A stretch of DNA of 28,703 bases from a virus. The stretch lies in the UHGV virus genome UHGV-0259485, one strand, 5' to 3'. The notes under the pieces were generated by a model. The model was not told where the DNA came from, ran no database searches, and saw only the letters and a list, made by a program, of their open reading frames with translations. The translations under genes and the position numbers were made by a program. Position 1 is the first letter of the stretch. Every line of letters begins with the position of its first letter. Shown here one piece after another: positions 781 to 16,900 of the stretch.

Positions 781-803
781 AAAAAAACCCAGCCGAAGCT
801 GGG
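781..803 (-). terminator. Rho-independent terminator between ant and tailspike
   Basis: Plus strand AAAAAAA-CCCAGC-CGAA-GCTGGG; on the minus strand a 6-bp GC stem, tetraloop, then U7. Confidence 0.6.
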
Positions 804-822
804 TCGTTGCGTTGGTTATCTG

Positions 823-1746
823 TCAGTAGTTATGTACTGAAGGAGGTAATTCTTTATTCTTAAGTCTCATCCATGCGGAAAGATTCGTTGGTCCGTCTGG
901 CTCATTAATATCAACATCTCGTGTATGGTTGATTAAAACATCTCTCGCCATATCGATAATACGGGAGAACTCATAACCGCAGTCATGACATCTGCCGGAA
1001 TAGTTCGATTGAATTTGTTTTAGCGCCGGATACAGTTCGCGGAATAATGCCTGTGAGCGGTTGGCATAATCCCATAACCATACAAGGCTGTTTGCTTCTT
1101 TTGCAGAAAGCTCGTTTGCTTTCTTCTCTTGTTTGCCAATGAACTCACCTTCAAGTGGAACTCGAGCTGCAAGTGATAGTGCTTCGGTAAACTGCTCCTC
1201 ACTGATCTCTTTGTACGAACATCCAAAATGGGATTTCAGTGACGACCACATGGTGATCATCGCCTTAGCCTGTTTTTCTTTTGGAAGAGACTGACCGCGA
1301 CTCATGACGAGTTGTTTAATGGCTTCCTGCTGTTCAGTGGTGATTTTCCCCGGCAATGCCTTTTTAGCTTTGCGCGGGTTAACTACATGGCCTTTAGTCC
1401 AGTATTCGTAGAGCACATCGTCACACTCTTCCTGATACTGGATTACCTTGTCGCGGATTTCAGGGCGGACTTTGTTTGGCTGAATGCTTGAAAGCCAAGC
1501 CGCAAACTTACGAAAGGCAAGGCATATCATTAACTGTTTACCGCCAGCAGAAGGTATTTCGATTTCCGAAATACCTTTGACAAATCTCTGTTTTAATTTA
1601 ACAAATTGAGCAGCCCAAACCATACCCATGCCTTCTACAACGGGTTTCATAGGAACGTAAGGTTCATTGTTAATGCTGACCAAAAAGAGATTTGTTCCGT
1701 GGAATGGAACGTTGATTGTATGTTCTGCAATTGCTACACTCGTCAT
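823..1746 (-). CDS. ant: Phage antirepressor (AntA N-terminal domain / KilAC-type)
   Basis: 307 aa; N-terminal INVPFHGTNLFLVSINNEPYVPMKPVVEGMGM antirepressor motif; sits between arc-like gene and tailspike as in P22 immI. Confidence 0.8.
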   Translation of the reverse strand: MTSVAIAEHTINVPFHGTNLFLVSINNEPYVPMKPVVEGMGMVWAAQFVKLKQRFVKGISEIEIPSAGGKQLMICLAFRKFAAWLSSIQPNKVRPEIRDKVIQYQEECDDVLYEYWTKGHVVNPRKAKKALPGKITTEQQEAIKQLVMSRGQSLPKEKQAKAMITMWSSLKSHFGCSYKEISEEQFTEALSLAARVPLEGEFIGKQEKKANELSAKEANSLVWLWDYANRSQALFRELYPALKQIQSNYSGRCHDCGYEFSRIIDMARDVLINHTRDVDINEPDGPTNLSAWMRLKNKELPPSVHNY

Positions 1747-1809
1747 GTCGTTAATTCCTATGCGTGGTTTTACGATACCGAAGCCCTGACTGTTCCCGCA
1801 GTTGGGGCT

Positions 1810-1950
1810 TCAACTTTTTAGGCTGCGAATAAGACGCTGCACTATTTCTGAATTTAAAGACCTGCCCTCCTCCTTAGCCTTTTCCTTCAATTTTTCTTTA
1901 ATCTCTGGCGGGATACGAATCCCTAATGGAGCGATGTCTCTAACTTTCAT
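1810..1950 (-). CDS. arc: Arc-like ribbon-helix-helix repressor (46 aa)
   Basis: Below ORF-track size cutoff. Hand translation MKVRDIAPLGIRIPPEIKEKLKEKAKEEGRSLNSEIVQRLIRSLKS with RHH pattern (LGIRIP...GRSLNSEIV); AAGGGG RBS; directly upstream of ant. Confidence 0.6.
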   Translation of the reverse strand: MKVRDIAPLGIRIPPEIKEKLKEKAKEEGRSLNSEIVQRLIRSLKS

Positions 1951-1963
1951 TTCCCCTTGCTTG

Positions 1964-2033
1964 CTACACCGTGATAACTAAATACTACACCGTGTTTATT
2001 TAAAGTCAAAATTTTTTTGCCTACACTGTGTAG
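1964..2033. promoter_or_regulatory. Divergent arc-ant / mnt promoter-operator region with repeated CTACAC half-sites
   Basis: CTACACCGTG at 1964-1973 and 1985-1994 (21-bp spacing); near-palindrome CTACACTGTGTAG at 2021-2033; located between divergent RHH genes. Confidence 0.4.
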
Positions 2034-2058
2034 CTATGCACAGCGTGCAGGAGGAGAA

Positions 2059-2298
2059 ATGAAAGGTGCAAGAGATATCAGTCCATTGGGGATTAGGATT
2101 CCAGACTATTTAAAGAAACGCATTCAGCAAGAAGCGGATAAAAACGGCAGATCAATGAACTCAGAGATCGTGCTTATCCTTCAAAAACATGTTGATAATC
2201 TTGATGGCTCTCGCTCACTTGAAGGATTCGCTAACCAAGAAGCTGATAAATTCAAAGAGGCGCTACTTGAGACGCTAAAGACCATGTATGGTAAATAA
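2059..2298 (+). CDS. mnt: Mnt-like ribbon-helix-helix repressor (start refined to ATG 2059)
   Basis: GGAGGA RBS before ATG at 2059; ISPLGIRIPDYLKKRIQQEADKNGRSMNSEIVLIL resembles P22 Mnt/Arc RHH; opposite strand to arc-ant as in P22. Confidence 0.65.
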   Translation: MKGARDISPLGIRIPDYLKKRIQQEADKNGRSMNSEIVLILQKHVDNLDGSRSLEGFANQEADKFKEALLETLKTMYGK

Positions 2299-2550
2299 TT
2301 ATTCAGGATGTGCCGATGTCTGATCGTAAGTACAAAAACCCTCAAGTGAATCTGAGGCTTCCTGTAGAGATAAAGGAACGTCTTATTGAACTGGCTGAGG
2401 CTAATTCTCGTTCATTAAATGCTGAGATGGTCGCGGCACTTGAAGCGTGGACAGAAAAAAATAAACACATTCAAGCACTAGACCTTGCAACTATAGCATC
2501 ACGATTGATAGATCTTGAACACGATGTTGAGACGCTAAAGACCATGTATG
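2267..2550 (+). repeat. Pair of identical 24-bp direct repeats (2267-2290 and 2527-2550) at the 3' ends of the two mnt-like genes
   Basis: TTGAGACGCTAAAGACCATGTATG occurs twice; both encode the C-terminal ETLKTMY tail. Confidence 0.8.
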
Positions 2551-2567
2551 CTAAGGATGAAAAATAA
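2316..2567 (+). CDS. Second Mnt-like RHH protein (paralog), translationally coupled to downstream gene
   Basis: AGGA RBS 7 nt before ATG at 2316; PQVNLRLPVEIKERLIELAEANSRSLNAEMV RHH motif; stop overlaps next ATG (TAATG at 2565-2569). Confidence 0.6.
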   Translation: MSDRKYKNPQVNLRLPVEIKERLIELAEANSRSLNAEMVAALEAWTEKNKHIQALDLATIASRLIDLEHDVETLKTMYAKDEK

Positions 2568-3103
2568 TGCTGCACACAATTCATTTCTTATGCCCCGTTA
2601 ACACTGCCACTGTTGGGCAACTTCAGAACCACTGTCTCACCGCATTATCTCAAGGCGCAACTGAATTAAATATCCATATATCAAGTCAGGGAGGGGAAAC
2701 TGCCGCTGGCTTTACTGCGTATAACTTTCTTAAGTCACTCCCTGTTACCGTTAGAACTCACAACATAAGCAATGTTGAATCCATAGCTAATATCGTTTTC
2801 CTGGCTGGCTCAGAACGTTTCGCAAACCCATTATCAAGATTCCTGTTACATCCTCTATTATGGTGCTTTGCCTCCCCAGCCGCCGACCATGCCAGATTGA
2901 GAGAGTACGGGAAATGCCTCGATAACGATCTTGATCGCTTCGTTGAGACGTTCAATATCGACATCGGAACCCATATTAGGTGGGCATCCCTGATAGCAGA
3001 CTCGACCATTTTGGATGCTAACAAGGCTCTTGAGCATGGCATAATTAATTCCATAAAAACTGCAAGGCTGGTATCCAATCAGGCAAACTGGTGGGTTGTT
3101 TGA
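2567..3103 (+). CDS. ClpP-fold serine peptidase-like protein (178 aa)
   Basis: NIHISSQGGETAAGF aligns with ClpP YINSPGGVITAG; candidate triad Ser (NVESIA), His (LLHPL), Asp (IADST) in ClpP-like order. Assignment by eye, not by search. Confidence 0.5.
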   Translation: MLHTIHFLCPVNTATVGQLQNHCLTALSQGATELNIHISSQGGETAAGFTAYNFLKSLPVTVRTHNISNVESIANIVFLAGSERFANPLSRFLLHPLLWCFASPAADHARLREYGKCLDNDLDRFVETFNIDIGTHIRWASLIADSTILDANKALEHGIINSIKTARLVSNQANWWVV

Positions 3104-3180
3104 TGGGTAAATCATGATTACTCCTATGGCCGGAAAGATTCGCATCCTTAAATTTAGTGAGCAAGGATTACCATCACACC

Positions 3181-3366
3181 TTAACAGCCTCCGCGTCCAC
3201 GAGTAATTCTGTCGCGGATTTGCTTCCTGCGGTGGTTTAAGCTGGAGAGCTTGGCTTCTGCTTCTGATATTTGCACATCTAGATCTTTAAGCTCAAGATC
3301 TGAAAGTCGCTGGTCAAGCAGGGTTTGATTCAACTCAATGTTGTTCAGACGTTCTTCTATGGTCAT
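3181..3366 (-). CDS. Small coiled-coil protein with basic C-terminus (61 aa), unknown function
   Basis: ORF with AAGGA RBS; heptad-like leucine pattern, C-terminal RRKQIRDRITRGRGGC. Confidence 0.35.
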   Translation of the reverse strand: MTIEERLNNIELNQTLLDQRLSDLELKDLDVQISEAEAKLSSLNHRRKQIRDRITRGRGGC

Positions 3367-3398
3367 GGTATTTCCTTAATCTTTAAAGTAGAGAAGAT

Positions 3399-3421
3399 AA
3401 AAAAACCCACCTGACGGTGGG
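3399..3421. terminator. Terminator-like hairpin, potentially bidirectional
   Basis: A7-CCCACC-TGAC-GGTGGG followed by TTAATTTTT on plus; U7 follows the stem on the minus strand. Confidence 0.5.
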
Positions 3422-3513
3422 TTAATTTTTGCATTTACCTGGGCCATATTGACTACTTATAAAATGAGATCAATATTTAATCGCCCAATAACGGGTATAT
3501 GTTGAGGTATATC

Positions 3514-3693
3514 ATGGCGAAAAAACCAGGTGAAAACACAGGAAAAAACGGCGGAATATACCAAGAAGTTGGCCCACGCGGCGGTAAGAAAGACAATTTT
3601 GCAACCGTCAAGGACAACGAAAGGCTTCCACCAACAACAAAGCCAGGTCATGGCTGGGTATTGGATAAGCGAACTCCAGACAGCAAAAAGTAA
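3514..3693 (+). CDS. YjzC-like small protein (GIY and PPT motifs)
   Basis: GAGG RBS 5 nt before ATG at 3514; MAKKPGENTGKNGGIYQEVGPRGG...LPPTTKPGHGW. Confidence 0.55.
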   Translation: MAKKPGENTGKNGGIYQEVGPRGGKKDNFATVKDNERLPPTTKPGHGWVLDKRTPDSKK

Positions 3694-3706
3694 TACTCAA
3701 GCCGGG

Positions 3707-4072
3707 TCACTCCGGCTTTTTGATATGTCGCTCGCAGAACTCAACAAGCCTGCTCATTAAGTAGCAGTAAGTCTCGTTGGCTCTTCCTGGTTCAACATCA
3801 ACACCTACCCTTGAGCAGATATCGAATGCCATGTGAGCGCACTCATGGGCAATAGTAGATAGTTTGCCATTGAACACGCCTATCACATGCAAAACACCAT
3901 TCTCGCTACTCATTGTATGAGACGCTCCGTTGGCGTCCGAGTCATGCACGTCAACGCCAAGTTTTTGATGCAGGCGTTGCCATTCTGGAAAGTCTCTACA
4001 AAACACAATTGTACCGCTCTCAAAGAGCGGTACTAGCATCTTTGGTACATTTCCAATGTTAACTTTTTTCAT
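3707..4072 (-). CDS. HExxH-motif protein, putative small zinc metallopeptidase-like (121 aa)
   Basis: STIAHECAHMAFDI contains HExxH; no other family signature recognised. Confidence 0.45.
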   Translation of the reverse strand: MKKVNIGNVPKMLVPLFESGTIVFCRDFPEWQRLHQKLGVDVHDSDANGASHTMSSENGVLHVIGVFNGKLSTIAHECAHMAFDICSRVGVDVEPGRANETYCYLMSRLVEFCERHIKKPE

Positions 4073-4106
4073 GGTATCCTGCGCAAAACTAAGGAGAGTT
4101 AATTAT

Positions 4107-4592
4107 ATGAAAAAATCACTGTTAATTATCCCGCTTCTGCTGGCTGGGTGCGCAAAAGTAAGCGACTATCAGGCAAGTTGCGAGCAACGCTATCCAAAGC
4201 TTAGCGATATGGCTAATTGCCTTGATGCCAGCTTGAAGAACGACTCTCGCATGGCATCAGCACCAACACCTAAGCTGTATGTCCTTGCTGCGAAGATGCT
4301 CGGGCAAGGTGTCGATGAAGGCAAGATAAGTGACACACAGGCAAGACTTGAACTTCAGAATCTTTATGTTCAATTACAAAGCCAAGAACAAGCCCAACAA
4401 ATAGCGCAAAGCCAAGCATTCCAGCAGGCTTTATTGAATTATCAGGCTGTAAACACAATGCAAGCGATCGAGCAAAAAGCGCGCCAGCCTGTTATAACTC
4501 AACCTTACCCAACACGCGTTGACACATATACAAACTGCAATTCAGGATTTGGAAACACCGTCACATGCAACAGTAGCAGCAACATTAGATAA
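4107..4592 (+). CDS. Lipoprotein (start refined to ATG 4107), Gln-rich central region
   Basis: AAGGAG RBS 10 nt upstream; MKKSLLIIPLLLAGC signal peptide with lipobox; candidate surface or superinfection-exclusion lipoprotein. Confidence 0.6.
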   Translation: MKKSLLIIPLLLAGCAKVSDYQASCEQRYPKLSDMANCLDASLKNDSRMASAPTPKLYVLAAKMLGQGVDEGKISDTQARLELQNLYVQLQSQEQAQQIAQSQAFQQALLNYQAVNTMQAIEQKARQPVITQPYPTRVDTYTNCNSGFGNTVTCNSSSNIR

Positions 4593-4763
4593 AGCTATTC
4601 ATATTCATTCATACCGCTTAACGAGGCGACAATACCAGCTCTCGACAAGCGATTGAATTCATCGCTACCAATAGCATCGCGTATTGCAGACCAACAATCC
4701 GATATGGTAAAGAAAATTGTCTTTGATACGCTCAGAGATTTATATAAAAAAGACAGCAACTAA
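4593..4763 (+). pseudogene. Remnant of an mnt-like gene (C-terminal ~35 codons, no start codon)
   Basis: Same frame as the lipoprotein gene, immediately after its TAA; translates ...IASRIADQQSDMVKKIVFDTLRDLYKKDSN, matching the P22 Mnt C-terminus (EQSELVKKMVFDTLKDLYKK). Confidence 0.5.
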
Positions 4764-4780
4764 CCATCCGTGGCTTTCCG

Positions 4781-7012
4781 TTACTTCTGGTTATCATCAC
4801 TGTTCATCCAGTACATGATGCCTAGCCTTGATATGGTTTTCTTATCTGATTCTGGAAGTGAGTTGTAAAACGAGCGCCAAGCAGAAGAGCGTCTTACAGT
4901 TGTATCAACGATGCTTTCTGGTGCTTGTTTTACTGCCAGCCTTGCTGCTTTCTGGAATTCTGGTGAGCTAATTAGCTTTTCTGCAGATTCCATTGATGCA
5001 GCGCCGCCCATCGCCCTGATTTTGCTGGCGACTTTTGCCCCAATTTCTGACCCAGCAACAGCACCTACTGCACTGAACGGTCCTGACACAGTTGAACCAA
5101 CCGCAGTGCCAATGCGTTGGGCATGGTTAGCAACAAATTCATTTGCCGCAGTGACGCGATTAAACCGTTTGACGAACTCGTTTAGTCTTCCTGTGGTTAT
5201 CTCGTAAGATTTTGCGTCTTTGATAGCCTTTGCGACCTTATATACATCGTTCAGACCTGACATAGTCTCTTTTGGTAAATGTCGGGCAAGATTGCGCATC
5301 TGCCCGTTTGCTAACATGTTTTGATACCAGTCAGCAAACCCTGCAGGATTAAAATCAGCGCCACGTTTTCCGTTCGAAAGCATATCCCGAAGACCTGTTC
5401 CCAGTAGCTCGGTTCTTAGCTTCCTGGACGGCGTGTTTTGCATCAATTCACGAAATCCTTTGGCATCGCCTTTCGACATTGCCTGTAGTGCTGTAGTTGC
5501 TTTGCGAGAAACATCACCGTTCAGCGTTCTGCCAGTTAGATTAATCATTTGCTCTTCCATGCTTTTTCGCATCTGAACAAGCCTCTGAGCAACTTCAAAA
5601 TCACGTAATGCATTTGTCTCTGACAGCGCCGCCTTTTGATCATCGGCGAGCGAACCGTAAAGCCTCGATAAAGCAGCGCGATCAGTATCTTTATATGGTC
5701 CAGAATTCCTATGAAGTGCATCACCAACAAGTCGTCGTTGCTTATTGAGATTTGCATAAGTTAATGCGCCGTTCTTGCCTGGATTAACTGCCCGAAAGAC
5801 TCTCTTTTCAATAGGGTCAAGGTTTTTCATCCCGCCAAGATCTTCTGCCACCTGTTTGAGCATTGACCTTGTTGATGGCGCATCAATTTTTGCACCTGCA
5901 GGCATCGCCTTTTCAACATTGCGATAAAGCTGGTCGCTTCGTTTCATCAGCGCAGACATTCTTCCATTGACCGTATCAATAAACTTGTCGCTCATACCAA
6001 GAGCATCTTTTGCACCGGAAACGCGATCAATTATCTCCCCCGCGCCCTGTGCTAGCTGCCTGATTGCTTCATTTTCCTGCACCTGTAGAGCAGAACCCGC
6101 ACGGGACTTGATTGCTTGCTCAACTGCCTTGTATTGCTCGTTCCCGGAAAAGTGTGAAGGGAGTAATGAATCAACATTAAGCCTTTCAGCAGACTCCAGA
6201 ACTTCAGCCTGAGGATTGATATCTAGTTCATCAAGCGATGAAGCGAGATTTGGCCTTTTTTGTGCTGCTACTGTGCGAACGACTTCCTCTGGGTTCCTCG
6301 TCGCAGGCGTCATTGGTACACCTTGTGCTACTCTTGCCTCTGCGGCATGAACCGCAGGATTTGTTGCTGCAGCGGCATCACCGGAGAATGGTGATGTTTC
6401 TGTTGGCGCAGTGGTCGCTCTCTGTGCAGATATTTTATTGCCACTAATTATATTTGATGCACCACGAACACCACGGGTAACGCCATTTATCAGGCCATGC
6501 GTAGCAATGTTAAGTCCGGCATTAATAGCGGCATTTTCGGCAAAATCACCCCGTTGATTCGCCGCGTCAGCGAGAGAACCAATGACCATGTTTCCAGCTA
6601 CACCTGCTCCAGGAACAAGATAACCGCCTATTGACTCTCCAGCTTGCGCGTAGGGGTCTGTCGGTCTGTCTACTGGACGATAAACATCATCCAATACTTT
6701 TGGCCCCCCAAGCCCCTGACTGATTGCATTAATCAGACTTGCGCCACCCTGCAATACGTCAAATGGTATGTTTACCAGACCACGACCAGCCTGTTCTGCA
6801 ATTTGCTCTGCACTTTGACCACCAGTGAGCCAATCGCCAGCTTGTTGCATCAATGATGGTTCTTCCCGTGTTGGTGCATTATTGGCCTGATTAACTGTTT
6901 GTTGCTGAACAGCCTGACCAGCAAAATACTCATCAATGGCGGTGCCAATATCTTCGGTGCTCGTACCATCAGGAAAGGTAAATGTCTTACCGTTTGCAGT
7001 TACTTTCATCAT
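4781..7012 (-). CDS. Ejection (E) protein, gp16-like by synteny (743 aa)
   Basis: Last large gene of the virion block in the P22 gp16 position; overlaps upstream gene by ATGA. Confidence 0.55.
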
Positions 7013-12434: not shown

Positions 12435-13694
12435 TTACTGGTTAGCCAGTACCAGGCCGGTGAATTCCGGGACCAGTACGCTTGCGCCAGCCAGCGTGGT
12501 GAAGCGAGTCCACGTTTTGCCAGATTTAGCGTCGAACTGGTAAGCCATGATGATGGTCGCACCCTGCTCGGTCCTTGCGGTCATAACCTGCGGACCCTGG
12601 CCGGTAGGGAATGCCAACTTGCCATACATCAGCTCAACAGAACCCTCAGCGAAGAAGATGTTGGAAGCCGCAGCCTTCTTGTTGAGGATGGTGATCGCCG
12701 CGTTTGCCACCGGATTGGCGGTAACGTTCTGGTAAGGAATAGACGCCTTATCCGCGTTGTCTGGTGGCAGAATTTTCGGGCTGATGGTAACGGTAGTGCC
12801 ATTTACTGCCAGGACGCGGAATACCTGCGGCTTACCTGTATCCACCTTCTTGATCATGTGGACACTGTTAACGCCTGCGATAGTGAATGCATCGCCGACA
12901 GCCAGTACGCCAGCAGTGGATACGGTGATGTCACCCTGGCGGTTATCGGTAGGCGCGCCGTTGGAATCCATCGCGGTAACTTTGTGTTTTACTGCGCCGC
13001 CGAGAGTTACAGCGGTAGCTGAACCAGCCTTCATTGCGCCAGCATAATCAACGCGGAAACTGTCGAAGGATGCCACAGGTGGAATCTGAGCTTTCTCATA
13101 GGCTGTCAGAGTTGCACCGACCGCATATGCGCGAGAGCCAAGCTCCTTAGCCAGGTCTTTGTAGTTGAACGGGTTGTAGAACGCCTTGCGCTGACCACCC
13201 TGAGGCACACCAATGGACAGCATCATTGCATCAACGTCAGCCGATGCGTTCCAGAGTTCTTCGCCGAGAGTGCTACCGGTGGACGCCGATTTAATGGTGA
13301 CCACGTTGGTGGAGCGAGCGACCACCTCATCGACGATCATGTTATCAACCCACGCCGCCAACTGGCGACCCGCCGCCTTGCCAGCCTGCTCTTTGTGCCA
13401 CGGATCGCGCATTTCTTTTGCGTCCAGTTCGTAGATGACGTTCTCTGGCTCGCGGAAGCGAGCAGGCACCTGACGCTGAACGAGTGAGTTTGCAGTGGCC
13501 GAAGTCAGATCAAGTCCGCTCACGGTTTTCAGGTGGTAGCCCTGAGGGCGATAAACAACGTCGCCAGCGCGCTGCATTTCAATGTCGCCCGGTCGGAACT
13601 TGCTGCACTCGCGGGAAACGACATTGGACGCCTCAAAACTATCAATGACGCTCTCAAAGAGGATTTCGAGGTCTTTTGTTAACTGGTTAGACAT
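12435..13694 (-). CDS. Major capsid (coat) protein (419 aa)
   Basis: Downstream of scaffold, followed by strong terminator; size close to P22/Sf6 coat proteins. Assigned by synteny. Confidence 0.7.
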   Translation of the reverse strand: MSNQLTKDLEILFESVIDSFEASNVVSRECSKFRPGDIEMQRAGDVVYRPQGYHLKTVSGLDLTSATANSLVQRQVPARFREPENVIYELDAKEMRDPWHKEQAGKAAGRQLAAWVDNMIVDEVVARSTNVVTIKSASTGSTLGEELWNASADVDAMMLSIGVPQGGQRKAFYNPFNYKDLAKELGSRAYAVGATLTAYEKAQIPPVASFDSFRVDYAGAMKAGSATAVTLGGAVKHKVTAMDSNGAPTDNRQGDITVSTAGVLAVGDAFTIAGVNSVHMIKKVDTGKPQVFRVLAVNGTTVTISPKILPPDNADKASIPYQNVTANPVANAAITILNKKAAASNIFFAEGSVELMYGKLAFPTGQGPQVMTARTEQGATIIMAYQFDAKSGKTWTRFTTLAGASVLVPEFTGLVLANQ

Positions 13695-13714
13695 AGGTAT
13701 TTAGCTCCGATGGA

Positions 13715-14611
13715 TTATTTTTTAGCTTTGTTCTTCGCCGCCCGGTATTCGGTGTAATCACCGGTGTCGCGCGCTTTTTCGAGAAGTTTGTCGAGGTTAT
13801 TGATTACTGCGCCGTTGCTCCCCTTAACTGTCGGGGTTGTGGCTGCCGTGGTTTTTGCTTTTGGCATGATTCTGGCCTTCGATTCGATACGTTCCAGCAG
13901 ACGACCAATTGCTACGGGGTTGGTAGCTTCTGCCAGTTGCTTGCGCAGTTCAGCGTTGCGACCGAGTGCCAGAACAACGATTTCCGGCTTCTCTGACTCA
14001 AGAAGGATCATGTCCTGAATGTGAACAGGAACATCTTCGCGTACAGCCTGCTCTGCATCCTGGTAACCAGCCACTTTCAGTGCTTTTACTCTATGCATGT
14101 AATTGGCTGCTTTCTGCTGAAGCGTTGCGGTACGCGCCTCTTCCTCTCGTTTCCGCTCTCGTACTTGCTCCTGGTATTTGCCGTTATCCTCTGCCCACTT
14201 AGCCATGCGTTGCTGATAGATTTCTTCATCGAAACCGATGTCCTCATCATCCAGTTTTGGCATTCGCGGTGGTTGAGTGATTACCGGCTGCTGCTCGACG
14301 GGTTTCTGAGACTGACGCATCAGCTCTTTCAGCTCACGGTCTTTCTCTTTAATCGTCTTGCGCAAGTGTTTTACCAGTCCATGCTCTGCGCCATCTTCGC
14401 TGGTTGGCGAATCCAGCTTTTCGTCACCAAAGTAGAATTCCTGTTCTGATTCGTCGTCATCAGTGTCAGTAGCTTCCTCTGCATCATTTCCTGAGGACTC
14501 ACTGCCATCTGCTGTTTCGACTTCTTCAGCCAGTTCGACATCATCAGGAATCTGCTCTGACGCGTCGGTTTCGATTTCAACTTCTGGTGTGTTTTCTGCC
14601 ATCTGGTCCAT
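13715..14611 (-). CDS. Scaffolding protein (298 aa)
   Basis: Highly acidic N-terminus, charged helical body, basic C-terminal tail (RAAKNKAKK); between portal and coat; size near P22 gp8. Confidence 0.7.
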   Translation of the reverse strand: MDQMAENTPEVEIETDASEQIPDDVELAEEVETADGSESSGNDAEEATDTDDDESEQEFYFGDEKLDSPTSEDGAEHGLVKHLRKTIKEKDRELKELMRQSQKPVEQQPVITQPPRMPKLDDEDIGFDEEIYQQRMAKWAEDNGKYQEQVRERKREEEARTATLQQKAANYMHRVKALKVAGYQDAEQAVREDVPVHIQDMILLESEKPEIVVLALGRNAELRKQLAEATNPVAIGRLLERIESKARIMPKAKTTAATTPTVKGSNGAVINNLDKLLEKARDTGDYTEYRAAKNKAKK

Positions 14612-14701
14612 TTGTTACCCCTGTTTACTCGATGTTCAGCCCATCGGAAGGCAATAGGGTGCCAGGCCTCATAAAGACAGCCATTGCACGTTATGGGTTA
14701 A

Positions 14702-16900
14702 TTACTGCTGTGGTTGTTGCTGAGTTGATTTTTGCAGGATGCTGCTGATGTCCATGCGCTGCGCATGACCCTGTGCCTGACTTTTCAGGACAAGCTCTGC
14801 ATCAGCACGGGCATTGTCTCCTTGCTGTTGCTGGAACTGTCCGAGCAGTTTCAGAGCCTCGCGGATATCAGATTTCTGCTGGCTATCGGCAGATGCGAGG
14901 ATTTTCACAACGTTTGCCGCTGCAACCTGAGCATCAGTCTGTGCCTGGAATGCTTTAACCTGAATGGCTGCCTGTTCGTTCTGCGCTTTCTGCAATTCAG
15001 CCTGACCTGCAAGAAGCTGACCTTGCGCTGCAACCATAGCCGGATCTGGCTGACTGGCCTGTTGTTGTTTCGCCTGCTCAACCATTTGCTGTTCTTCAGG
15101 CGTTCTCGGCTTGATAACGCCAGAAAGAAGCAACTGATTGCGGTTGTATTCTTTCAGGTCGTCCATCCCTTCGCCGTCCATATTGTCGAGAATCATCGAC
15201 GATACAAGGTCATGCTTCGGCGTTCCTGGCGGGATAAGTGCCAGCATGGAAAGTAACGACTTAACCGTTGCATCACGGCGAGTAGCGAACGACTGACCGA
15301 CATCGACAGTCACTTCATAGTTACCCTGCGAAAGGTCGTTAAGCGCGATAACCTGCCCTGTCTGACGGTCAACCACTTCACCAGTCATCAGCGCCACGTC
15401 ATCGCTGTCATCCTCATTAACGATGCGCATTGGCGTATCGCTGCCATAGACTTCACGAGCCATAGAAAGCCACACGACGCCAGCACGGCGCATGGATTTA
15501 GCCATGTTGTCCATGTAGATATAGGACTGCGTGTCCATCCGGTTAAAGATGCTATCAACGGTATCGGTAGCGACGTTGCTCGGCATGTTCTCAAGCTGCG
15601 ACGCACCTGTAATTTGCTGAATAGCCGTTCCGGTGTACTGCAATAGCCCGGCAAGAGCTGGAGGCATTTGTGTCGGAGGTGTCCAGCCAGCAACCTGAGC
15701 CTCTGAAATGACCGTTCCGTTTTTGTCCTTCTTGCTGGTCATGGGAAGAACTGCAGGTCTTTTCTTATTCCTCTCTGCCCAGTGATTCATTAATGGACCG
15801 GGAATGAAATCAACATCCACGATAGGAATGCCATCACCGCCAGCCTGAGTAGCGTTATCTGCAATCATGGAAACCATCAGGTTCTCAAGACGCTGTGCAT
15901 CCATCGCTTTTGCAGCGTGGCCTTCGATTCGCTCCTGATTATCAACAAATGAACGACGCCCATATACCGGGATGAGAGGAATATGTTCGCCCGGAATACG
16001 CTTCGGTTCTTCCAGCCATTCAGCGCCAGACAGAAGACCGCAATAAACTCGGCGTTTCTTCACTGTCCGCTCACCAATCAGTTCGAATGCGCCATCGGTC
16101 AGCTCGTCGACAATATCTTTGATTTGATCTTCATCATAGATTGCCGTTTCTCCGCTAACAGGGTTACGCCATGCTGTGAGCTTCACCTTCTCTACGCGAA
16201 CTTCGTAGTAGCGACCAACATAGATAGCATCAGGAGTTGACCAGTCATATTGAGTACCAGTGTCATCACGAGAAAGGCTTGCCGCGATGGAATCAGGGTA
16301 TTCAGCCTCGAACGCTTTAGGCGTCATGGAGAACATTTCCATAGCCCACATAGCATCAGAGCGGTCATATTGCTTGCTGTCCTGATCAAAGAAGACGCAT
16401 GTCGCTGGGTCGTAAACAGGGAGAAGGCTTATACGGCGTTGCTCGTTACTCGGATCCATTTCATCTTCGTAATCAGCACACATGCGGAAACAACCGAATC
16501 CGCCCGTTACAGCATCATCAAATGCGTTATCACACGCTTCGCCACCGGATGTTTCCTGATAATCAGCGCGGAATTTGCCGTTCATCTTTTCGGCTAACGC
16601 TTCCGATGCCTTGTCATCCTTCGGCCTGAATTTAACGCTGATGCGATTCTGTCGATACTCGCCAATGATGCGATCACATTCACGGGCAATCTTATTCAGT
16701 TCAAAGCGCGGGTAATGCTCAAACCTGCCTTCATCAAATGAGTAACCAGCGTTTGTGCTGCCTTCCCACTGTGCGCCGGACACCCGGACGAAACGTTGAG
16801 CCTCAATAATCTGCTCACGCATATCCTGCGTTGCTGACCAGGCATTATCAAAGTTGCACAGCACCTTGCGATGCCAGTCAGTCATCTTTTTTTCTGCCAT
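14702..16900 (-). CDS. Portal protein (732 aa)
   Basis: Size and position match P22 gp1; Gln-rich C-terminal helical segment (QQMVEQAKQQQASQPDPAMVAAQGQLLAGQAELQKAQNEQ) typical of P22-like portals. Confidence 0.8.
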   Translation of the reverse strand: MAEKKMTDWHRKVLCNFDNAWSATQDMREQIIEAQRFVRVSGAQWEGSTNAGYSFDEGRFEHYPRFELNKIARECDRIIGEYRQNRISVKFRPKDDKASEALAEKMNGKFRADYQETSGGEACDNAFDDAVTGGFGCFRMCADYEDEMDPSNEQRRISLLPVYDPATCVFFDQDSKQYDRSDAMWAMEMFSMTPKAFEAEYPDSIAASLSRDDTGTQYDWSTPDAIYVGRYYEVRVEKVKLTAWRNPVSGETAIYDEDQIKDIVDELTDGAFELIGERTVKKRRVYCGLLSGAEWLEEPKRIPGEHIPLIPVYGRRSFVDNQERIEGHAAKAMDAQRLENLMVSMIADNATQAGGDGIPIVDVDFIPGPLMNHWAERNKKRPAVLPMTSKKDKNGTVISEAQVAGWTPPTQMPPALAGLLQYTGTAIQQITGASQLENMPSNVATDTVDSIFNRMDTQSYIYMDNMAKSMRRAGVVWLSMAREVYGSDTPMRIVNEDDSDDVALMTGEVVDRQTGQVIALNDLSQGNYEVTVDVGQSFATRRDATVKSLLSMLALIPPGTPKHDLVSSMILDNMDGEGMDDLKEYNRNQLLLSGVIKPRTPEEQQMVEQAKQQQASQPDPAMVAAQGQLLAGQAELQKAQNEQAAIQVKAFQAQTDAQVAAANVVKILASADSQQKSDIREALKLLGQFQQQQGDNARADAELVLKSQAQGHAQRMDISSILQKSTQQQPQQ

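Follow-up and report, generated by a model that had tools for sequence, protein, structure and literature searches.

Why would a P22-like prophage carry, set directly against a repressor gene of its immunity I (immI) region, a gene for a protein that resembles the peptidase subunit ClpP? The question is raised by the virus genome UHGV-0259485, a stretch of 28,703 nt, hereafter the window, that has the overall character of a P22-like prophage. Three plus-strand open reading frames (ORFs) lie in its immI region (Table 1), and an original prediction, made from the sequence alone, described them as an operon of two Mnt-like ribbon-helix-helix (RHH) genes, here mnt1 and mnt2, followed by a gene for a 178-aa ClpP-like protein. 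The three ORFs and their coordinates held up, and Pfam places an Arc domain in each of the first two products and a CLP_protease domain in the third. Tandem mnt genes and cargo in the ant moron were already known; the third product is a phage-borne member of a ClpP subfamily first characterised in 2026. On the analysis below, we consider it probable that this gene supplies a lysogen-expressed accessory ClpP subunit as cargo of a P22-type ant moron.

The ClpP-like protein matches Pfam PF00574 with 44.4 bits (gathering threshold 20.2), its residues 24-165 aligning with profile positions 37-180. An AlphaFold model computed from a 37-sequence family alignment has a predicted local distance difference test (pLDDT) score of 92 and a predicted template modelling (pTM) score of 0.87. 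When this model was searched with Foldseek, the best match was 9uxt_A (TM 0.92, 38% identity, E=1.4e-21), followed by dozens of canonical ClpPs at a TM of ~0.8 (0.79-0.82, including those of E. coli and S. aureus) and ~20% identity, the next-best match having E=9e-13 and TM 0.80. The predicted structure confirms the ClpP alpha/beta fold, with its handle helix, that the original prediction had proposed by threading.

A family profile searched against PDB sequences with hmmsearch likewise ranked 9uxt first (E=1e-50), with the next chain at 1.7e-13, and the ClpP-like protein is 38-40% identical to 9UXT over its full length. This structure is ClpP1 of Pseudomonas plecoglossicida (PpClpP1), a divergent, N-terminally truncated ClpP reported in 2026 (PMC12900304). 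The window protein belongs to the same N-terminally truncated subfamily, with which it shares the truncation itself, the retained Ser and His, and a residue other than Asp at the third triad position. Its triad, its N-terminal elements and its score all set it apart from canonical housekeeping ClpP (NCBIfam TIGR00493 / PRK00277), the NCBIfam ClpP models giving 19-40 bits against cutoffs of 228-361. A viral fold search in BFVD returned generic ClpP-like viral proteins only (TM ~0.8, 16-25% identity), none of them closer than 9UXT. The family comprises 229 clusters at 50% identity (E<=1e-30). Members were also seen on contigs of an actinobacterial metagenome-assembled genome (Actinomycetota, 48% identity) and an archaeal one (Nitrosotenuis, 33%), which could reflect binning contamination or distant transfer.

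For residue numbering we used E. coli ClpP, taken from LF82. In the alignment, Ser72 of the window protein corresponds to ClpP Ser97 and His95 to His122; both are invariant in all 141 family representatives, as are Gly43, Arg84 and Phe92. The oxyanion glycines Gly42-Gly43 lie within a retained SxGG segment, and the C terminus carries NWWV. The Ser-His-Asp triad of the original prediction thus stands in its first two members but not in its third: the proposed Asp145 aligns with ClpP Arg170, and the position of ClpP Asp171 is occupied by Ser146 and varies among G, A, R, S, P and E over the 141 representatives, with no conserved Asp.

The window protein begins near residue 26 of the mature E. coli enzyme and therefore lacks both the axial loop and helix A. 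We also compared the seven ClpP residues that we take to form the docking pocket for the IGF/IGL loop of ClpX and ClpA. Y60, Y62, F82, I90, M92, F112 and L114 align with N35, H37, S57, H65, I67, F85 and N87, respectively, and five of the seven positions are polar in the window protein (Y60N, Y62H, F82S, I90H and L114N).

The characterised member of the subfamily, PpClpP1, forms a homotetradecamer with an axial pore of 42.7 A, and its Ser-His-Pro triad needs Ser and His but can do without the third residue, Pro (PMC12900304). As a peptidase it is ~13-fold weaker than the canonical paralogue; it fails to bind ClpX, and on its own it degrades neither casein nor GFP-ssrA; combined with canonical ClpP it yields a heterotetradecamer with higher activity, and knockout of ClpP1 in Pseudomonas affects growth and motility (PMC12900304). 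The earlier statement that no function had been described for a ClpP-fold protein here is accordingly right for the locus but not for the family.

The ClpP-like gene is wired into the mnt operon. The TAA stop codon of mnt2 (2565-2567) and the ATG at 2567 have one base (A) in common, giving the TAATG overlap that had been predicted, and an AAGGA Shine-Dalgarno sequence lies upstream of the start. The gap between mnt1 and mnt2 is 17 bp, and no terminator-like sites were found on the plus strand between mnt1, mnt2 and the ClpP-like gene. In the E. coli strains CE10 and APEC O1 (avian pathogenic E. coli) and in phage phiv205-1, window position 3125 joins 3400 directly, so that a bidirectional terminator follows immediately after the ClpP-like gene. 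Homology to the 3′ end of P22 mnt and to ORF59a extends over this terminator, a promoter-like site after it and a 59-aa gene (3514..3693); the P22 counterpart of the hairpin overlaps the mnt stop codon. The terminator is likely the end of the mnt-ClpP transcript. Since the ClpP-like gene is located between mnt and this ancestral mnt terminator, it has been placed inside the mnt transcription unit.

Published work regards mnt as a gene expected to be expressed from the prophage (PMC2629481), and mnt of the P22-like prophage Gally is transcribed in an uninduced LF82 lysogen in culture, rising ~40-fold in macrophages (PMC9928086). Gally lacks the ClpP-like gene, so these data concern mnt transcription only. 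From the position of the gene within the mnt unit, together with this expression of mnt, we strongly infer that the ClpP-like gene is co-expressed with mnt in the lysogen. The original description of a lysogen-expressed accessory module fits this placement, and it fits the occurrence of the gene elsewhere as a lone insert in moron slots.

By blastn, window positions 782-3125 match, at 99.0% identity over 2344 bp, a block of E. coli MS 196-1 (locus 2783-5126) that sits in a lambdoid prophage between the tail genes K and L, and PhiR12 phages carry a one-mnt version of the block at the same K/L place. As these two cases demonstrate, immI and the ClpP-like gene move as a cassette, of which ant forms the left part. 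A P22-type immI cassette can thus pass between podovirus and siphovirus genomes, and a tail operon can accommodate it. In the window, the cassette lies between gene 16 and the tailspike gene, in the hypervariable region known as the 'ant moron', which in P22 also holds sieA (PMC2629481; PMC10883804).

Carriers are not rare. The ClpP-like gene is present at >=99% identity in 126 of 5426 complete E. coli genomes (~2%), among them APEC O1 and the neonatal-meningitis strain CE10, and in the phages phiv205-1, E212, EC.P3 and PhiR12_1/4/5. An 'Arc family' gene adjoins it in 38 of the 40 E. coli records listed. The pair of a single mnt with the ClpP-like gene is found in E. coli genomes and in Pectobacterium, where a P22-like prophage has a 79%-identical ortholog in the same mnt-overlapping position, and the overlap is retained with at least four different mnt alleles across E. 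coli and Pectobacterium.

Enterobacterial relatives at 52-74% identity have no RHH neighbour and occur as lone genes, on the strand opposite their neighbours, in other prophage slots. These slots lie between the lysis cassette and terminase (Klebsiella, Leclercia and E. coli), between the N gene and erf/ssb (Proteus), between tail-fibre and lysis genes (Chromobacterium) and beside tape-measure, baseplate, Rha or TerL genes (Pantoea, Erwinia and Rahnella); the immI-linked copies of E. coli MS 196-1 and the PhiR12 phages add the lambdoid tail operon. Over ~15 enterobacterial loci and one Chromobacterium locus, the gene was seen in at least five different slots. As most homologs lack an RHH neighbour, the coupling of an RHH gene to a protease gene does not survive as a conserved two-gene system. 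The PpClpP1 orthologs of Pseudomonas and Azotobacter are solitary chromosomal genes beside KGG/CsbD-type stress genes, and the Massilia loci look chromosomal from our reading of their ORFs. Because the enterobacterial genes are lone, opposite-strand inserts in varied prophage slots, unlike the chromosomal Pseudomonas and Azotobacter orthologs, this branch has the character of a moron, an accessory gene gained by independent acquisition. No motif common to all upstream regions of the stand-alone homologs was recognised by eye; those of Pantoea and Erwinia, and only those two, have in common TCAGGATTACAAA ~50-60 nt upstream of the ClpP-like start, which may be a clade-specific promoter or operator element.

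We propose the following explanation. The ClpP-like gene would be cargo of the variable stretch from ejection gene 16 to the tailspike gene, where its position before the ancestral mnt terminator would have the protein made whenever Mnt is made, i.e., in the lysogen, and the TAATG overlap would couple its translation to that of mnt. The protein keeps the nucleophile, the general base and the oxyanion hole and has neither axial gating loops nor helix A nor a conserved triad Asp; by homology to PpClpP1, its assembly would be a wide-pore barrel, weakly active as a peptidase. The protein would not itself dock an unfoldase and could co-assemble with the housekeeping ClpP of the host, its presumed oligomeric state and ClpP interaction being modelled on those of PpClpP1. 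The prophage would then either supply the host Clp machinery with an accessory subunit or run a gate-less peptidase beside it.

Several points weigh against this explanation. The mechanism is drawn from a homolog with only 38-40% identity, whose gene sits on a Pseudomonas chromosome and not in a prophage, and E. coli ClpP may not accept the window protein as a partner. The sampled contexts contain no conserved partner gene that would offer a functional clue. Our promoter scan found no consensus sigma-70 Pmnt on the plus strand upstream of mnt1, and no consensus promoter upstream of the stand-alone Leclercia and Proteus homologs. Pmnt of P22 is also weak. Finally, the window has an extra 274 bp (3126-3399), absent from CE10, APEC O1 and phiv205-1, that splits the ClpP-like gene from the terminator, and a plus-strand mnt-ClpP transcript would run antisense through the 61-aa ORF that this segment contains.

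An alternative holds that the protein acts alone as a superinfection-exclusion or anti-phage effector, that is, as a gate-less peptidase, independent of host ClpP, whose substrates are incoming or early phage proteins in unfolded form, or which sets off abortive infection. The ClpP-like gene is always single and on the opposite strand, a YafO-family toxin adjoins it in the APEC O1 ant moron, its slots match those of prophage exclusion and lysogenic-conversion genes (the ant moron with sieA in P22, post-lysis, and early-left near N; PMC2629481; PMC10883804), and the wide pore of the homolog would admit unfolded chains (PMC12900304). However, a scan of all ant-moron proteins against PADLOC-DB v2.0.0, a library of 2023, gave no meaningful match, and at E<=0.1 no family was hit by Mnt1, Mnt2 or the ClpP-like protein. 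The Pseudomonas chromosomal orthologs stand in non-defence contexts and their knockout hits growth and motility, PpClpP1 alone leaves casein and GFP-ssrA undegraded, and no sensor or partner is evident. We regard an exclusion effector as possible but unlikely.

The order of an RHH gene and an overlapping downstream gene is that of classical type II toxin-antitoxin (TA) modules, and weak NCBIfam matches to RelB-like antitoxins (E=0.0025, far below cutoff) point the same way, toward a TA-like or abortive-infection pair in which Mnt2 neutralises or autoregulates a protease toxin. Such a pair is very improbable. Outside P22-type immI blocks the RHH neighbour is absent and the ClpP-like gene solitary, the chromosomal orthologs are solitary too, and at least four Mnt alleles can take the place of the RHH partner, their known job being the repression of ant. 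We therefore rejected the TA module on the ground that the pairing is not conserved across contexts.

Equally little credence attaches to the view that the gene is a neutral passenger, hitch-hiking in a mobile immI block without any function in the lysogen. The block does move as a whole, and the E. coli copies, being >=99% identical, say little about selection. Comparison with the Pectobacterium ortholog, however, gives a ratio of nonsynonymous to synonymous substitution rates (dN/dS) of 0.083, a sign of purifying selection; over 141 diverse representatives the two catalytic residues, Ser and His, and the oxyanion Gly do not vary; and independent captures have brought the gene into at least five prophage slots without immI. 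Purifying selection and repeated independent capture together contradict neutrality.

A ClpP-related prohead (head-maturation) protease, as suggested by the GenBank label 'head maturation protease' in phiv205-1 (MN340231), by the best PHROG match (PHROG 94, E=7e-21) and by NCBIfam Clp_rel_HeadMat (NF045542, E=5e-13), is scarcely credible; the original prediction had already set such a role aside, and it was rejected here by score, strand and context: NF045542 gives 49.3 bits against a cutoff of 120, the PHROG 94 match is limited to the protease core of a 622-position profile, the gene lies inside immI on the strand opposite the head genes, the head module of the window (TerS-TerL-portal-scaffold-coat, ~9 kb away) has a scaffold and no protease gene, none of the ~15 sampled homolog contexts falls in a head or capsid module or between portal and coat, and the nearest relatives are cellular ClpP1-type proteins.

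The original prediction further took mnt to be duplicated. The two genes are only 33% identical and are different alleles. The usual E. coli form has a single mnt that corresponds to mnt1 but ends in ...TMYAKDEK and overlaps the ClpP-like gene; mnt1 of the window is 99% identical to the single mnt of CE10 except at its C-terminal end, and its final codons (GGT AAA TAA) derive from an inserted CUS-3-like segment. Compared to the single-mnt form, the window has 258 extra bases, whose edges are a shared ...ACCATGTATG sequence; this insert encodes Mnt2, and the shared ...GAGACGCTAAAGACCATGTATG sequence likewise marks its edges. Mnt2 is 94% identical at the amino acid level to the product of the first of two annotated tandem mnt genes in phage CUS-3. 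DNA homology to CUS-3 begins ~25 bp before the mnt2 ATG, and CUS-3-type GGTACGCAT operator repeats are absent from the control region of the window (1951-2058). By these two features mnt2 lacks a promoter and operators of its own; it is a heterologous CUS-3-type allele that recombined in at conserved mnt 3′ sequence. The double-mnt form is rare, being found in 1 of 5426 complete E. coli genomes. The arrival of mnt2 would be an event separate from the capture of the ClpP-like gene and would leave the lysogen with two Mnt specificities, the second lacking a cognate operator in cis. Mnt2 may plausibly repress in trans the antirepressor of CUS-3-type superinfecting phages.

A broader hypothesis joins the two genes: Enterobacterales prophages would have captured an unfoldase-blind truncated ClpP and would express it in lysogens to rewire host Clp, either as a partner assembled with host ClpP or as an ungated barrel, while the orphan Mnt2 would additionally silence the CUS-3-type antirepressor in trans. 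We hold this as a long shot. If true, Clp rewiring would alter the turnover of regulators, for example the replication or ejection proteins of superinfecting phages, the antirepressor, or RpoS, and the gene would represent a novel class of lysogenic-conversion or exclusion factors that consist of one gene and work through the proteolytic core of the host.

The immI region around these genes is complete and has the P22-type layout, with ant, sar, arc, a divergent mnt and repeated operator-like sequences between them. The sar region contains a terminator-like hairpin at 1780-1811. The control region between arc and mnt1 holds the repeats CTACACCGTG(A/T) at 1964 and 1985, the palindrome CTACACTGTGTAG at 2021-2033, and a Pant-like promoter, TTGACT-16-TAGTAT, on the minus strand at 2009-1982; following the P22 paradigm, the repeats and the palindrome are putative operators. 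Pfam reports the Arc/RHH domain in Mnt1 and Mnt2 and, for neither, PF11423 (Repressor_Mnt, the Mnt C-terminal tetramerisation helix), which is on record for the Pectobacterium Mnt ortholog. A C-terminal ETLKTMY in Mnt1 and Mnt2 presumably corresponds to DTLKDLY of P22 Mnt, an alignment consistent with the P22 locus. Arc is 50% identical to the N-terminal half of Mnt1, and the DNA-contacting strand PLGIRIP is common to both. The ribosome-binding and start regions of arc and mnt1 (1944-1957 and 2052-2065) form a 14-nt inverted repeat. Given this repeat and the common PLGIRIP strand, Arc and Mnt1 of this immI may read related half-sites.

The remainder of the ant moron carries further cargo and traces of exchange. 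The terminator that follows the ClpP-like gene in other genomes stands, in the window, immediately upstream of the minus-strand 61-aa ORF. Two relics of mnt 3′ ends were seen: 36 codons (...VFDTLRDLYKKDSN) at 4653-4763 on the plus strand, abutting the gene 16 stop, and the last codons of a P22-type mnt inside the terminator hairpin (AAAAAACCCACCTGA) at 3400-3412. Recombination at mnt 3′ ends has occurred repeatedly in the ant moron. The 59-aa orf59a-type gene directly follows the ClpP-like gene in CE10. A pairing of the ClpP-like protein with a small Gly/Lys-rich protein (orf59a/YjzC-like here, KGG in Pseudomonas) was considered and dropped as not significant (BLASTP E=0.05). The 121-aa protein may be a very small metallopeptidase-like protein, and the 161-aa lipoprotein, encoded on the strand opposite the late genes, is a candidate lysogen-expressed surface or exclusion factor. 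P22 gp16, at ~609 aa, is shorter than the gene-16-type protein of the window. The APEC O1 ant moron (locus 4086-4535) has a gene for a YafO-family type II toxin and one for a 188-aa partner, convergent with the ClpP-like gene, which is further evidence that the ant moron gathers accessory and defence-type genes. The virion genes of the window (TerS, TerL, portal, scaffold, coat, gp10 and the ejection proteins gp7, gp20 and gp16) are on the minus strand, with portal, scaffold and coat contiguous at 12435..16900.

Table 1. Features of the immI region and ant moron of the window (positions in nt; strand empty where none applies).
Feature	Position	Strand	Evidence
ant, P22-type antirepressor	823..1746	-	Pfam P22_AR_N E=7e-40, P22_AR_C E=1.3e-27; PHROG 245 E=3e-95
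sar antisense RNA	1748..1815	+	Rfam RF00262, full length, 84.6 bits (gathering 43), E=2e-17
arc, RHH repressor	1810..1950	-	Pfam Arc E=5e-13
Control region between arc and mnt1, 108 bp, divergent Pant/Pmnt	1951..2058		repeats, palindrome and promoter-like site
mnt1, resident Mnt-type repressor, 79 aa	2059..2298	+	Pfam Arc E=5.6e-8
mnt2, heterologous Mnt allele, 83 aa	2316..2567	+	Pfam Arc E=3.1e-10
ClpP-like gene, N-terminally truncated ClpP1-type serine peptidase subunit, 178 aa	2567..3103	+	Pfam CLP_protease E=2.2e-11
Block moving as a unit, ant-sar-arc-mnt1-mnt2-ClpP-like	782..3125		99.0% match over 2344 bp in E. coli MS 196-1
Coiled-coil ORF, 61 aa, in the extra 274-bp segment	3181..3366	-	PHROG 7586 E=1e-43
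Bidirectional intrinsic terminator	3404..3423		homologous to hairpin overlapping the P22 mnt stop codon
Promoter-like site before ORF59a homolog	3449-3477		near 3514..3693
ORF59a homolog, 59 aa, Gly/Lys-rich	3514..3693	+	weak YjzC-like Pfam match below gathering
Terminator after ORF59a homolog	3699-3718		near 3514..3693
121-aa protein	3707..4072	-	PHROG 1365; HECAH (HExxH) motif
Predicted lipoprotein, 161 aa	4107..4592	+	MKKSLLIIPLLLAGC lipobox; PHROG 6067 E=3e-109
Gene-16-type ejection protein, 743 aa	4781..7012	-	first 174 residues match 'transglycosylase' PHROG, E=1e-62

Searches of the literature on prophage-borne or moron ClpP, on the protein accession and on ClpP in defence hotspots returned nothing on this gene; the papers on phiv205-1 and E212 do not discuss their ClpP-like gene, and none of the literature searched describes a prophage contributing a subunit of its own to the ClpP core. 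The PpClpP1 subfamily, published as a Pseudomonas paralogue, has a mobile, phage-borne branch. A prophage ClpP subunit is of interest since many regulators of phages and hosts are under the control of ClpXP and ClpAP, and it raises the question of what a truncated accessory ClpP does in vivo, as a fitness, maintenance or exclusion factor. This question is directly testable: the gene is short and easy to clone, ~2% of complete E. coli genomes carry it, and mutagenesis can be guided by the solved structure of a homolog.

Among known systems, the head-maturation proteases (NF045542, PHROG 94) share with the window protein the superfamily fold and the Ser-His core, but the window protein falls below their cutoff, is without a scaffold- or capsid-linked extension, and is encoded outside the head module on the opposite strand. 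CUS-3 (CP000711, ECRS218_0005/0006) resembles the window in having two different mnt alleles in tandem on one strand. There, however, the Mnt2-type gene is promoter-proximal and has GGTACGCAT repeats of its own beside it; a P22-type mnt comes next, and a ClpP-like gene is lacking. The Mnt2 gene of the window, by contrast, is promoter-distal and without GGTACGCAT repeats. P22 sieA and orf59a lie in the same compartment (gene 16 to tailspike), in mnt orientation and downstream of mnt (PMC2629481; PMC10883804), and the window keeps both the P22 mnt terminator and an orf59a homolog. Unlike them, the ClpP-like gene encodes a protein of cytoplasmic type, is unrelated in sequence, and lies before the terminator, overlapping mnt.

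P. aeruginosa ClpP2, Listeria ClpP1, Mycobacterium ClpP1P2 and the Streptomyces ClpP homologs form mixed tetradecamers. These accessory paralogues offer a parallel, in that a partly defective second subunit modifies the core; the papers searched describe none of them as phage cargo. PaClpP2 is also without the ClpX-binding N-terminal elements (PMC12900304). They differ in being cellular, in belonging to other ClpP clades, and in giving profile scores far below that of 9uxt.

The closest comparison is with PpClpP1 itself (9UXT), a member of the same subfamily with the same N-terminal truncation and nearly the same size (183 aa vs 178 aa). Both proteins keep Ser and His, have a residue other than Asp at the third position (Pro151 in PpClpP1, Ser146 in the window) and end in a similar W-containing strand. 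The oligomer, the blindness to ClpX and the mixing with housekeeping ClpP are features of PpClpP1, while the window protein is known from its sequence and model. The two differ most in their setting: PpClpP1 and its orthologs are solitary chromosomal genes, whereas the gene of the window and every enterobacterial relative sampled are inserts in prophages, and the window gene is joined to an mnt operon.

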